Below are positions 5,594 to 60,368 of a stretch of DNA of 64,000 bases, piece by piece; position 1 is the stretch's first letter, and every line of letters starts with the position of its first letter. Source of the DNA: Patescibacteria group bacterium (lineage in GTDB: Bacteria; Patescibacteriota; Minisyncoccia; Moranbacterales; GWC2-37-73); NCBI GenBank assembly GCA_022709565.1, contig JAKLIO010000001.1, positions 73,927 to 137,926 on the forward strand, written 5' to 3'. The position numbers were made by a program, and so were the translations under genes. The notes beneath the pieces were generated by a model, which had not been told where the DNA came from, made no database searches, and was given only the letters and a program-made list of their open reading frames with translations.

Positions 5594-5707
5594 ATTTTTA
5601 TTTCTTTAGCTCTTACGCTTTTAGCTTTAGTATATCGGTCATCAGGAAAAATATCAATAAAAAAACAACCCTATTTAGTCTGGATTGTTTTTAAGATTTT
5701 CAAATAA

Positions 5708-6214
5708 TTAATGTCTGGTTCCGGCGACTCCTGCCAGTCCAAGATTACTGCCACCTCTTTTAAAAAATTGCTGATTAAATTGGGACGTTGTCATAGCCGC
5801 ACCTGGCTGGCCAAGACGCGGCGGCGCAGACGGCGCACTTGAAGAAAGTCTGCCAGAGGCAGAAGGAAATTGTCCAGCAGGATTACCATTCGGCGTTCTC
5901 CTTTTAGCCATAATTTCCTGCATGACTTTATTCATATCAACTTTCGGTTTTGCATCACTAATTTTTCCTGCAATGCTAACATTACCCTTGCTAAATTCTT
6001 TCACAATATTTCTGGCCTTAAAATCACTAAGGCCAGATTTTTTAGCAGCTGCCATTAAATCTTCTCTCTTAACAAAGCTCTTTGAGCCAAGTTCTTTCAC
6101 TAGATTATTAACCACTTCTCTGCCCTTATATGCACCAACACCACCAACTCCTGCTAATTTACCAGACATGGCTTTTCTATTTATCGCTTCACTTCTTTTA
6201 ATTAAAATACCCAT
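5708..6214 (-). CDS. Hypothetical Lys-rich protein with a Gly/Pro/Ser-rich C-terminus. The start is uncertain: the ORF is open up to 6307.
   Basis: ORF-track frame 5708..6307. The first 31 codons read like AT-rich promoter sequence, so I prefer the internal start MGILIKRS at 6214. Confidence 0.45.
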   Translation of the reverse strand: MGILIKRSEAINRKAMSGKLAGVGGVGAYKGREVVNNLVKELGSKSFVKREDLMAAAKKSGLSDFKARNIVKEFSKGNVSIAGKISDAKPKVDMNKVMQEIMAKRRTPNGNPAGQFPSASGRLSSSAPSAPPRLGQPGAAMTTSQFNQQFFKRGGSNLGLAGVAGTRH

Positions 6215-21236: not shown

Positions 21237-21338
21237 CATATAATCTTTTAATGTTTTAATCTTAGCACATTGACAAACTAGTTTCAAATACATATTATAA
21301 AGAAGTTACCATGCCTTAAATAAGCCAACAGACACAAG

Positions 21339-21420
21339 CCCGAGTGGTGAAATTGGTATACACGCACGACTCAAAATCGTGTGGCGCAAGCCATGAGAGT
21401 TCGAGTCTCTCTTCGGGCAC
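21339..21420 (+). tRNA. tRNA-Leu (anticodon CAA), type II with a long variable arm
   Basis: GCCCGAG...CTCGGGC acceptor stem, anticodon arm CACGA-CUCAAAA-UCGUG, variable hairpin TGGCgcaaGCCA, and T-arm GAGAG-TTCGAGT-CTCTC. Confidence 0.8.
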
Positions 21421-21440
21421 AAAGTTAAGCACGCTTGTCC

Positions 21441-21500
21441 GCCTTGGGCGGAACTCAAAATCGTGTGACGCAAGTCTTGTGGGTTTTTATCCCGCACCGA
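21441..21500 (+). other. Partial tRNA-Leu-like duplicate (anticodon loop and variable arm segment only). Possible remnant or small RNA.
   Basis: aactcaaaatcgtgtgacgcaagtc matches 25 of 27 nt from the middle of the adjacent tRNA-Leu. It is not foldable into a cloverleaf, having neither a T-loop nor an acceptor stem. It is preceded by the hairpin TCCGCCttgGGCGGA. Confidence 0.4.
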
Positions 21501-21564
21501 GCTTCTTGTCCCGTAGTCAACTTGCTGTACTACTGGGATGCTCTGGTGCCGGGACAACTCCCAC

Positions 21565-21597
21565 CATCGGCACACAAAAAATCCCGCCATTATTAGC
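21565..21597. terminator. Bidirectional Rho-independent terminator
   Basis: AATCCCGCcattattaGCGGGATT, with AAAAAA before it and TTTTTT after it. Confidence 0.7.
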
Positions 21598-55087: not shown

Positions 55088-55137
55088 TTTTGATTTATGC
55101 TCCGCGACCAGGACTCGAACCTGGAACCAATTGATTA

Positions 55138-55741
55138 CACATTATCTCTTTGTTTCCAAAAAGGGTGGACTATATCATTCCCACTCTTTTATAAAAGGGC
55201 GGGATGAGGCGCTTCCTGGGATTAAAAATCCAAGTACTCTCTTGCGAGATAGTCTCTGAACCTTCCCTAAAAGGGTTTGGCTGCTGATTACCATAATTTC
55301 TGCTGAGAAATTTTAGGCTTCCAGTCCCGATATTATCAATTTTGTAATTGAATAAAACCGAGATCCCATTTTATTGGGACAATTCACCTCATTCTTCACT
55401 TCCAAATTTCTTTGGAAGGCTGCGAATATTGTTGTGCAATTCCCTATGGCAATTCGCGCACACAAGAATACATTTGTCAATTTCATTTTTTATTCTTTCC
55501 CAACTGCGAGTTAAACCATCTTGGGAAATTGCAAAATCCTTTTTTGAAGAATCATTATGATGAAATTCTAATGCATCACTGCAACGATCATAACCACAAA
55601 GTGCACATCTACCACCTCCGTATTGAACTGCCATTTCTCGAAGTTTTCTTCGTCTTTTCGAAACAGCTTTGATCATATACTCTCGGCGGTCAGCATATTT
55701 TCGGGTTTCCTTCATATTTTTTTAAATAAAGGATGTGTACC
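55138..55741 (-). mobile_element. Group I self-splicing intron carrying an HNH homing endonuclease gene
   Basis: The intron 3' region carries the catalytic-core consensus elements R (GGTTCAGAGACTATC) and S (AATGATATAGTCC), giving P7 pairing GACUA/UAGUC, and a Q-like AATCAGCAGCCAAACCC. The intron ends in G and the 5' exon ends in U. The first 330 nt hold an HNH ORF. Confidence 0.7.
55389..55715 (-). CDS. HNH homing endonuclease (intron-encoded)
   Basis: CALCGY...LEFHHNDSSKK...N...CILVCANCHRELHN is the HNH/His-Me finger with two CxxC zinc knuckles. 108 aa. Confidence 0.85.
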   Translation of the reverse strand: MKETRKYADRREYMIKAVSKRRRKLREMAVQYGGGRCALCGYDRCSDALEFHHNDSSKKDFAISQDGLTRSWERIKNEIDKCILVCANCHRELHNNIRSLPKKFGSEE

Positions 55742-59371: not shown

Positions 59372-59647
59372 TTAAGCGGCTAGTTTTTGATCATCGTTTT
59401 CTGAATACATTTTTCCAATTTTTTTACTAGCCCTCTCTAATTCTGATTCTACGGCCATTTTGGCAGTTTCTCTAGTAATTTTCACGTTTTGATTTTCCGG
59501 CCGTTTTAAGAAATCATCTATCTTTTTTTCCATTTCAGTCTCCGAAAGTTTAATTTTAGAAACATTATAATCAATTCCGGATTTATCTGTTCCCATTTCA
59601 GGCTTCCCCCCTCCTTCTTTATTTCCGCTTTCAAAAAATTCAAACAT
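59372..59647 (-). CDS. Small hypothetical acidic protein
   Basis: 91 aa, open frame between hairpins. No motif. Confidence 0.4.
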   Translation of the reverse strand: MFEFFESGNKEGGGKPEMGTDKSGIDYNVSKIKLSETEMEKKIDDFLKRPENQNVKITRETAKMAVESELERASKKIGKMYSENDDQKLAA

Positions 59648-59759: not shown

Positions 59760-59948
59760 TTAAAACAGACCAAAGGTCTGTTTTAACCCCTTAAACCCCT
59801 CATTAATCGCCCAGCCACAAGCAATGAGCGAAGAAAATCCGGCCAATCCAAACAAAAAGACAAGAGGCCATTTAAAGAACGATTTCCTTATTTTTGCCAC
59901 CATATTTGCCGCCCCTTTTTCCATTTCTCCTACTTCTAACATAACCAT
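59760..59948 (-). CDS. Small hydrophobic hypothetical protein (62 aa)
   Basis: One transmembrane-like helix (WPLVFLFGLAGFSSLIACGWAI). The stop codon abuts a palindrome. Low confidence. Confidence 0.3.
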   Translation of the reverse strand: MVMLEVGEMEKGAANMVAKIRKSFFKWPLVFLFGLAGFSSLIACGWAINEGFKGLKQTFGLF

Positions 59949-60010
59949 CCCTCCTTTTTCTTTTTTATGATTTGATTTGTTTTTATTTATAAAAAAGAAC
60001 TGTTATTTCT

Positions 60011-60031
60011 CCCGCCCAAAGCGGAAAGGGG
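60011..60031 (-). other. Duplicate of the 3' terminal about 20 nt of tRNA-Ser (att-like direct repeat), 217 bp from the intact gene
   Basis: gcggaaagggggagattcg at 60012-60030 is identical to 60229-60247 (the tRNA-Ser T-stem and acceptor 3' strand). The intervening 200 bp are GC-rich with three tandem palindromes. Confidence 0.5.
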
Positions 60032-60228
60032 GAGATTCGGCTTCGACTAAGTTTTTGCCGTCGCAAAAACTTGTCTAGCCACCGCCTCGCGGTTTTGTCT
60101 ACTGACAAAACATCGCTCCGGCGTTCTCATCCCCACGCGACGCAAGCAGTTGCGTCGCTCTTTTCCTAATTTCATTTTGTTTTGTTAAGAACTAACTGTG
60201 TCATTCAAACATCTGCTCCTGCTCAGGG

Positions 60229-60315
60229 CGGAAAGGGGGAGATTCGAACTCCCGATACCGTTTCCAGTATGCCACCTTTCCAAGGTGGTGCACTCGACCA
60301 CTATGCGACCTTTCC
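60229..60315 (-). tRNA. tRNA-Ser (anticodon GGA), type II
   Basis: GGAAAGG...CCTTTCC acceptor stem, U8, anticodon arm CCACC-UUGGAAA-GGUGG, variable hairpin ATACtggaaacgGTAT, T-arm GGGAG-TTCGAAT-CTCCC, and G73. Confidence 0.8.
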
Positions 60316-60368
60316 GCCTTGAGCAGGATATTTTGGAACTTATGCTTAAGTCCTAGTTGTTCCTAATA

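Follow-up and report, generated by a model that had tools for sequence, protein, structure and literature searches.

A conserved, hairpin-rich element with copies of the tRNA 3' end follows many tRNA genes in bacteria of the candidate phyla radiation

Introduction

What lies between an intact tRNA gene and a second, exact copy of its 3' end? The question is raised by a locus of a Patescibacteria group bacterium, at which tRNA-Ser(GGA) is trailed by such a copy. The locus is part of a stretch of 64,000 nt (contig JAKLIO010000001.1 of assembly GCA_022709565.1, positions 73,927 to 137,926 of the forward strand); we refer to this whole stretch as the window and number its positions from 1. An earlier sequence-only reading of the window had offered two explanations for the segment between the copies, namely the remnant of an excised or degraded integrative element, or a small structured RNA co-transcribed with tRNA-Ser. 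Here, we report that the segment belongs to a family of conserved, hairpin-rich elements of about 150 bases, which follow many tRNA genes in bacteria of the candidate phyla radiation (CPR). Full-text searches of the literature retrieved no description of such an element.

Results

An exact copy of the tRNA-Ser(GGA) 3' end

The 19-nt sequence GCGGAAAGGGGGAGATTCG has two exact copies on the plus strand of the window, at 60021-60039 and 60228-60246, and no further site in the window with up to three mismatches. A chance match, held to be improbable before, was not obtained in any of 100 dinucleotide-preserving shuffles. The proximal copy (DR-L, 60228..60246, minus strand) represents C56 to C74 of the tRNA-Ser(GGA) encoded on the minus strand, where it reads CGAATCTCCCCCTTTCCGC and comprises T-loop C56, the T-stem 3' strand, the acceptor 3' strand, G73 and C74; the register follows from the T-loop TTCGAAT. 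The tRNA gene itself is intact. It was placed at 60229-60315 by Rfam (56.1 bits) and at 60226-60316 by ARAGORN, with C74 at 60228.

The two copies are 207 nt apart from start to start and enclose 188 nt. The duplicate had been recognised correctly, with 19 of 19 matching positions in exactly two copies, while its coordinates were slightly off: the distal copy had been located at 60012-60030, that is 9 nt too low, and its distance given as 217 bp. Likewise confirmed are three palindromes (60053-60070, 60093-60112, and 60137-60158) and a GC-rich, hairpin-dense character of the segment. GC content is 0.53-0.55 across 60000-60149 compared to 0.30-0.43 around it, and the segment folds on the minus strand with -86.5 kcal/mol (z = -4.9).

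The family and its distribution

Metagenome contigs were scanned with the motif GAGGCGGTGGCNAGAC…AGTCGA, which is common to the window and to two related loci, L003 and L004. The scan yielded at least 118 loci. About 11 of these matches are due to chance and lie in GC-rich coding DNA; the remainder share far more than the pattern. Counts of loci (78 or 80), members (69) and anticodons given below were taken from the matches listed and are lower bounds.

At least 78 distinct loci combine a tRNA gene with the element, and their tRNAs cover at least 28 anticodons and 13 amino-acid identities as assigned by ARAGORN; a tRNA-Ala locus was added by a covariance model, R1. In every locus whose contig reaches far enough upstream, the element is preceded by an intact, same-strand tRNA that ends 67-240 nt (median 99) before the motif. 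The sequence past AGTCGA and RGC is a copy of this upstream tRNA, starting from C56. When compared with C56 to C74 of the local tRNA, the tail is identical at 19/19 positions in 30 of 80 loci among the matches listed, at 18/19 in 12 and at 17/19 in nine, so that 51 of the 80 reach 17/19 or better. The length of the exact repeat has its mode at 19 nt and a range of 18-23 nt, with a few cases at 28-79 nt. Since elements throughout the family copy the upstream tRNA from C56, with 19 nt as the most frequent repeat length, the repeat in the window is a defining feature of the family and not a local accident.

R1 matches the window at 60021..60136 on the minus strand (110.4 bits, E = 1.2e-31), its sole copy there. 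In other contigs it detects further, more diverged copies, at three of the 11 tRNAs in L196 and at two each in L154, L128, and L201. The share of tRNAs with an element in sampled loci was 3/11, 2/5, and 2/5. No association with tRNA genes lacking an encoded CCA was found (13/78 with the element, 13/77 without).

Architecture and structural support

Structure was studied in an alignment (A1) of 69 non-redundant cores, written on the tRNA strand. On this strand, the parts follow one another in the order spacer, hairpin H0, left strand of helix P1, hairpin hp1, a dinucleotide GU, hairpin hp2 and tail. The core is a three-way junction, in which P1, composed of the antisense arm and the sense tail, closes around the two hairpins. 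Each element contains the tRNA 3' end twice, once in antisense and once in sense orientation, and the family as a whole represents a strand-specific three-way-junction element physically coupled to tRNA genes.

In the window, all parts are on the minus strand. H0 (GCGACGCAA-CTGC-TTGCGTCGC) occupies 60137..60158 and lies inside a block with one substitution in 141 positions (see below); its loop, aaCUGCuu, is recurrent in a major subfamily. The left strand of P1, GGGGATGAGAA (60124..60134), is antisense to the T-loop and the T-stem 3' strand according to A1 and its pair counts. It is of the 'GAGAA' variant, with tandem G.A pairs predicted at the inner end of P1. Hairpin hp1 (60083..60123; CGCC-GGA-GC…GC-GA-GGCG), part of the R1 match, is composed of an invariant base helix, a covarying next helix and the variable arm GTTTTGTC-AGTA-GACAAAAC. 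Hairpin hp2 (60039..60080; GGCT-A-GAC…GTC-GA-AGCC) has the variable arm TTTTTGC-GACG-GCAAAAA and shares C60039 with the tail. The tail (DR-R, 60021..60039) is the exact copy of C56 to C74 of tRNA-Ser, and its first ~11 nt serve as the right strand of P1.

The family consensus is CGCC-GGA-GC…GC-GA-GGCG for hp1 and GGCY-A-GAC…GUC-GA-RGCC for hp2. Thus, hairpin bases are near-invariant and arms are variable and covarying; the invariant stretches of the core read AACGCCGGAGC … GCGAGGCGGUGGCYAGAC … GAGUCGARGCC. Over 22 pairs of P1 and the bases of hp1 and hp2, 91.2% of the alignment cells hold standard pairs, against 27-45% with slid partners, and the covariation score of 0.289 (0.124 in shuffles) was reached by none of 500 shuffles. 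Pair 72-109 of hp2 illustrates this covariation, with C-G in 38 members, U-A in 24, U-G in seven and no unpaired case. The presence of U.G without any C.A is a strand-specific signal. Along this line, the tRNA-sense strand folds more stably than its complement in 64 of the 69 members (-51.0 versus -44.7 kcal/mol, p = 1e-12).

The two copies of the tRNA 3' end differ in their relation to the local tRNA. The consensus of the P1 left strand is GGGGAATCGAA; together with its AA, it matches T54 to N65 of the local tRNA exactly in reverse complement and follows the T-loop type, be it AATCGAA, ATTCGAA, ACTTGAA, ACTCGAA or ATTTGAA. Its identity is 90% to the tRNA and 82% to the tail. Of 19 sites at which tail and tRNA disagree, the left strand pairs with the tRNA base only at 16, with both bases at three, and with the tail base only at none. 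Variation in hp1 and hp2 is independent of the local tRNA.

In about one third of the copies, a further segment directly 5' of H0 complements the acceptor portion of the tail: 35% of copies possess a partner at -10 kcal/mol or below, compared to 18% in permuted controls (p = 0.0014). An acceptor-like 5' strand as a universal part of the element was dismissed: a crude test was negative, and refined tests gave the partner in the said third. Likewise, a kissing interaction between the loops of H0 (CUGC) and hp1 (CAGCAG) was given up, being present in some members and missing from many. A symmetric motif, GGCGAGC…GCGAGCC, with predicted tandem sheared G.A pairs recurs in subtype arms of both hp1 and hp2, and internal loops of the GA type are frequent across the whole element.

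Conservation and selection

Between the window and locus L090, the tRNA shows 0/89 substitutions, the spacer after it 12/66 (18%), the core from H0 to the tail 1/141 (0.7%) and the sequence after the tail 19/70 (27%); the coding sequence of pyk differs by 6.5% and the small open reading frame (ORF) by 12%. The high rate in the spacer indicates little constraint. A set of 22 related pairs with the same tRNA type gave 6.5% for the tRNA, 20.9% for the spacer, 43% for the downstream sequence and 6.2% for the core, the latter being biased downwards as the pairs had been selected on core identity. Nine near-identical strain contigs from different samples, with identical pyk protein, are identical in the intergenic region.

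Purifying selection acts on the core with the same strength as on the tRNA, and something keeps this copy of the element intact, its locus-specific hairpin arms included. A decaying scar is excluded, because the core is conserved like the tRNA while its flanks diverge, and because it is identical in the strain contigs.

Flanks and neighbouring genes in the window

The variable spacer between tRNA and core extends from 60162 to 60227 on the minus strand. At its 3' edge is a weak antisense-acceptor segment, GGAAAAG (60160-60166). The spacer also holds, at 60218-60225, the trailer strand TGAGCAGG, which is predicted from the sequence and from a minimum-free-energy fold of the whole unit to pair with the leader strand CCTGCTCA (60320..60327, minus strand) and thereby to lengthen the acceptor stem of the pre-tRNA. 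A leader/trailer helix of other sequence surrounds tRNA-Ser in L004 in the same position (AGTTTCAAA/TTTGAAACT, about 5657-5665 and 5756-5764).

Past the tail follows the conserved 3' extension TTTGGGCGGGAGAA (60007..60020, minus strand), whose GGCGGGAG stretch forms pairs with the acceptor portion of the tail in minimum-free-energy folds. Compared to L090 it is identical up to 60007, where divergence sets in. A T-run follows at 59991-59999, with no terminator called there.

The gene order, all on the minus strand, is pyk, tRNA-Ser, the segment, an ORF of 62 aa, an ORF of 91 aa, dnaG and rpoD. The 62-aa ORF (59760-59948, minus strand) is predicted to be membrane-like and has a strong GGAGG ribosome-binding site; the 91-aa ORF (59372-59647, minus strand) lies between the element and dnaG. 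Gene calling in the strain contigs recovers both, and neither matches a Pfam family. Among called genes from 3 kb upstream to ~4 kb downstream of the element, no integrase domain was detected; the domains present are DUF212, LemA, peptidase M48, PK, DnaG, and sigma-70, the remaining genes having none.

Neighbours of the copies in other contigs

In about 100 loci, no recurrent recombinase, reverse transcriptase or transposase was found near copies of the element, and clustering of 736 neighbouring ORFs, in search of an enriched neighbour protein, returned syntenic housekeeping clusters only. Targeted Pfam scans detected only one large serine recombinase (L106), one LAGLIDADG protein (L132), GIY-YIG domains in five loci and a defence island with methylase and AIPR genes (L105). 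The LAGLIDADG ORF is 233 nt away from the element. Small GIY-YIG ORFs adjoin tRNA genes in several loci, among them L007, where the ORF occupies the spacer from pyk to tRNA-Ser, L008, and L167.

Copies in tandem are identical to each other, while dispersed copies within one contig are quite different. An intragenomic homogenisation was ruled out, as identity is confined to tandem copies.

In L183, L186, and L115, unrelated structured modules within the spacer from tRNA to element occupy the same frame, composed of an antisense T-loop/T-stem arm, the module and a copy of the tRNA 3' end. Modules of these other types form tandem series after one tRNA; in L186, one unit of another type is followed by two units of the family.

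The pyk/tRNA-Ser locus in related genomes

Synteny at the tRNA-Ser locus, an informative comparison according to the sequence-only reading, gave a divided picture: tRNA-Ser(GGA) follows pyk in all nine related genome loci, and the content downstream of it differs, the trailing segment being patchy among them. L005-L009 contain nothing comparable to the element after tRNA-Ser. In L001 and L002, a degenerate, module-free 3' half of tRNA-Ser is located downstream. In L003 and L004, the tRNA-Ser 3' half carries an AT-rich hairpin and a module inside its T-loop, and this module is clearly homologous to the two distal hairpins of the window, with compensatory changes.

Upstream of the intact tRNA-Ser, L001, L002, and L004 reveal a tRNA-Ser 5' half (GGAGGGGTCGCA…GAGTGCACC) at a distance of ~160 nt. 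Its D-loop contains a multi-hairpin insertion of ~125 nt, compared to 31 nt in L006. In L004, this 5' half (GGAGGGG) finds its complement in the acceptor strand CCCCTCC of the 3' half further downstream, not in that of the inner tRNA; therefore, the intact tRNA is nested within an older, disrupted tRNA-like gene. In L007, dnaG has an apparent intein-like insertion past its zinc-ribbon region.

Other inserts at tRNA genes of the window

A related arrangement exists at tRNA-Leu(CAA), where tRNA and insert span 21338-21577 on the plus strand and the arrangement downstream of the tRNA spans 21453..21577. The presence of a similar arrangement had been noted before, with a 25/27 copy at 21445-21470; the copy we find is 22/24 at 21453-21476 against 21369-21392. 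It comprises the anticodon loop, the 3' strand of the anticodon stem and the variable arm. A T-stem-like helix, GTGGG/CCCAC, then holds a different structured insert of ~77 nt, followed by CATCGGCAC and a terminator. R1 has no match at this arrangement, which represents a second tRNA 3' half with a T-loop insert, unrelated to the element behind tRNA-Ser.

Rfam reports a group I intron at 55146-55423 (minus strand, 55.8 bits), directly followed by a tRNA 3' exon, …GGTTCCAGGTTCGAGTCCTGGTCGCGGAGCA (region about 55098-55560). The site is apparently an intron-containing tRNA gene that was missed by ARAGORN and whose 5' exon was not found. An ORF with a CxxCH…H (HNH-like) motif ends ahead of the intron.

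Comparison with known RNA families

Above threshold, Rfam 15 matched only tRNA and the group I intron in the window. Up to E = 10, no relevant Rfam family was found in the region of the element, in nine other members or in L004. In particular, the window region and the nine members lack matches to 5S, tmRNA, hammerhead, twister, pistol, hatchet, and HDV.

Several identities suggested by resemblance were rejected. A tmRNA or two-piece tmRNA, suggested by a GGC-TTCGAC resemblance on the opposite strand, was negative in both ARAGORN and Rfam. A three-way junction like that of 5S rRNA, with loop-E-like motifs, found no support in Rfam. Hammerhead, hairpin and other self-cleaving cores as well as canonical k-turns were discarded since the junction and the GGA/GA and A/GA loops misfit their consensus cores and Rfam gave no match.

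Discussion

The favoured reading

We favour, tentatively and at slightly less than even confidence, the reading that the element is a conserved, selected, single-stranded structured element in tRNA 3' trailers, most probably an RNA transcribed from the tRNA strand. We take the folding strand to be RNA, as the element invariably lies next to a tRNA gene and in the same orientation. The element would be transcribed with its tRNA or just after it, and cleavage by RNase Z at N73 would separate the two. It may then remain as a stable RNA with a three-way junction, and its invariant internal loops might bind a putative conserved partner. Its antisense arm could pair with either the real tRNA 3' strand or the decoy tail, and the element could therefore gate, in cis, how its own tRNA folds or matures. 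As to its origin, each copy would have arisen when the tRNA 3' end was duplicated locally, in both orientations, about a common module. The small structured RNA proposed for the segment beforehand fits covariation, strand bias and selection; the accompanying co-transcription with tRNA-Ser is presumed.

Several observations weigh against this reading. Variation in P1 is templated by the local tRNA and is not compensatory, and therefore its apparent covariation is no proof of selection for pairing. Terminator-like hairpins with a T-run lie between tRNA and core in 33 of 78 loci among the matches listed and thus argue against obligatory co-transcription. The low substitution rate of the core in the 22 related pairs is affected by their selection on core identity. 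The element is patchy across related genera at the orthologous pyk/tRNA-Ser locus. Tandem units occur, with two in L178 compared to one in L124 and further cases in L141 and L186, and islands adjoin copies or split the tRNA from its copy (5 kb in L105, 2.6 kb in L191, and 3.9 kb in L194); both are reminiscent of mobile DNA. The island of L105 (3546-8922) consists of an N6/N4 DNA methylase, an AIPR abortive-infection protein and unknown ORFs, situated between two copies with related tails. Directly before the distal copy of L105 are a truncated tRNA 3' end and a duplicated terminator.

It is also conceivable, if doubtful, that the element is the nucleic-acid part of an undescribed tRNA-coupled system. 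Such a system might be a cis switch, in which the junction acts as a sensor choosing between the real 3' strand and the decoy and thereby gates tRNA maturation. Or a recombination machinery encoded in trans might use the element as its folded guide or attachment module, targeting any tRNA T-loop and restoring the gene in the process.

Alternative explanations

The main alternative, which we likewise consider doubtful, is that the element is a cis-acting end or recombination site of a mobile system targeted at tRNA genes. It would be a non-autonomous mini-element or a folded single-stranded site similar to attC, inserted at T55/C56 in such a way that the tRNA 3' end is duplicated. A recombinase, nuclease or reverse transcriptase acting in trans would recognise it once folded, and the ~190-nt units would be cargo-less. 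Such a site would account for a right junction fixed at C56 combined with a left repeat end that varies (mode 19, 18-23, up to 28-79 nt), as well as for the use of one module at 28 or more tRNA species with a locally matching repeat each time. The tandem units, the islands and the patchy distribution across genera described above speak for it as well, and so do the other module types that share the P1/tail frame in L183, L186, and L115. Further points in its favour are the ORFs of homing-endonuclease type near some copies (GIY-YIG in five loci, LAGLIDADG in L132) and the serine recombinase near L106. However, no recombinase, reverse transcriptase or transposase recurs beside the copies, the nine strain contigs show no polymorphism, and copies at different tRNAs of one contig are quite different and give no sign of a recent burst. 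The islands may equally be later insertions into a permissive spacer or tail copy. Within one and the same repeat-bounded unit, the spacer diverges by 18% and the core by 0.7%; this contrast calls for in-place selection, from which a resident selfish site would not benefit. In viral sequences, a phage attP was not found: a short pattern gave chance matches in GC-rich viral coding DNA, and the specific pattern had no match in 2.9 million viral contigs. A target-site duplication of fixed length was rejected as well, the repeat having its mode at 19 nt and reaching up to 79 nt.

Unlikely, in our view, is a disrupted tRNA duplicate, i.e., a pseudo-tRNA that hosts a small selfish insert specific for the T-loop. 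The acceptor and T-stem parts would then be relics of a tRNA copy, and the module would survive only in non-essential copies. This explanation draws on the related loci, as the module of L003 and L004 lies inside a recognisable tRNA-Ser 3' half with anticodon-stem 3' strand, variable arm and T-stem, while L001 and L002 have this 3' half without the module. Moreover, the tRNA-Leu of the window is trailed by a 3' half whose T-stem-like helix surrounds a different insert, and L001, L002, L004, and L006 possess 5' halves with D-loop insertions. It is at odds with the typical left arm, which is the reverse complement of T54 to N65 and includes loop bases that are unpaired in a tRNA; therefore, this arm is not a tRNA 5' strand. 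In addition, the sequence of H0 is conserved across different tRNA contexts, and purifying selection spans the whole core, not the module alone.

Very improbable is a neutral attachment-site scar, that is, an attL/attR pair left over after decay of an integrase-borne island, although a direct repeat of the tRNA 3' end from the T-loop is a known signature of integration into tRNA genes (PMC9897764). A scar does not explain a core as conserved as the tRNA amid decaying flanks, a conserved structure that covaries, or the same module at more than 100 loci, and an integrase is missing. The remnant of an excised or degraded integrative element, as considered in the sequence-only reading, is therefore abandoned: the core changes at the slow pace of the tRNA, nine strain contigs share it without a difference, and there is no integrase domain nearby.

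Hardly credible either is a tRNA-derived intrinsic terminator for read-through transcripts: the window tail does pair with the downstream GGCGGGAG and a T-run follows, as in the hairpin plus T-run described earlier, but this run begins ~9 nt past the stem, the scan for an intrinsic terminator on the minus strand is negative at the tail, tails show no enrichment of downstream partners across the family (p = 0.59), 33 of 78 loci among the matches listed have a canonical terminator upstream of the core, and a 116-nt junction with invariant loops goes far beyond what a terminator needs. The segment is conserved and non-polymorphic, as would befit the conserved terminator that the sequence-only reading had set against its own proposals, yet it is not a terminator.

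Comparison with known systems

After integration into a tRNA gene, the element is typically flanked by a complete tRNA copy at one end and an incomplete one at the opposite end (PMC9897764), and attL/attR repeats in tRNA genes, including a T-loop sublocation, are ascribed to Williams 2002 as cited therein. The loci described here share with such islands the 3'-end repeat starting from the T-loop, a segment bordered by an intact tRNA and, opposite, by a partial copy, as well as arrays and occasional adjoining islands. Unlike attachment sites, they lack an integrase, enclose 188 nt that are mostly under strong purifying selection, show no strain polymorphism, contain a conserved three-way junction beside the distal repeat and employ one module for at least 28 tRNA species.

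The attC sites of integrons resemble the element in their conserved structure with variable arm sequences, in short invariant positions with unpaired bases, in the better folding of one strand and, in a few loci, in a tandem arrangement with cargo between units. In contrast to attC, which is a single imperfect hairpin, the element is a three-way junction closed by a helix of tRNA sequence. It has neither a nearby IntI-type integrase nor R'/R'' core motifs, and most of its copies are free of cargo.

Noncoding RNAs (ncRNAs) at tRNA flanks or released by tRNA-processing enzymes include the mascRNA-type and t-element-type mimics. Similar to these, the element is located on the same strand directly downstream of a tRNA, and its tRNA-like acceptor/T-stem helix could recruit RNase P or RNase Z. 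It differs in that its mimic is copied from the neighbouring tRNA and fully paired to an antisense arm, and its junction is unrelated to small nucleolar RNAs (snoRNAs). In the dicistronic tRNA-snoRNA genes of plants, as summarised in PMC12045711 with reference to its refs 66-67, an ncRNA from the tRNA flank is freed by tRNA-processing enzymes. The box C/D-like RNAs of TIGR-Tas, which are used by CPR bacteria, are part of a different system (PMC12045711).

A likeness also exists to omega-RNA: here as there, a scaffold is directly followed by a stretch dictated by the locus, of ~19 nt in the element. In the omega-RNA of TnpB and IscB, a conserved scaffold is followed by a guide read from the flanking DNA. 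The differences are that no TnpB or IscB gene is nearby, the tail is largely paired internally, the intact 'target' lies 200 nt upstream and no match of omega-RNA type is found in Rfam.

Non-canonical tRNA introns, in the T-loop or D-loop, and split tRNAs occur in Archaea (PMC4090602, PMC4390854). The inserts of L003, L004, and the tRNA-Leu of the window resemble such introns in being located inside the T-arm of a tRNA-like sequence, and the nested 5' and 3' halves flanking the intact tRNA of L004 resemble split tRNAs. In contrast to archaeal tRNA introns, the host is bacterial, as indicated by DnaG and sigma-70, an intact tRNA is present alongside, and typical copies are devoid of D and anticodon arms.

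Implications

On either the favoured reading or that of a mobile site, annotation pipelines that take repeats of tRNA 3' ends for integration scars would mislabel these loci. If the element is a recombination site, it would represent a new mobile or recombination module that targets tRNA genes and works without a linked recombinase. If it is, as we tentatively favour, a structured RNA of tRNA trailers, a sizeable share of the tRNA genes in CPR bacteria would carry a dedicated, strongly selected structured RNA. This RNA would combine a mimic of its tRNA's 3' end with an anti-mimic, an arrangement without counterpart in Rfam 15. It would constitute a new tRNA-linked class of RNA in organisms with minimal genomes and would provide a testable handle on the processing and control of their tRNAs.

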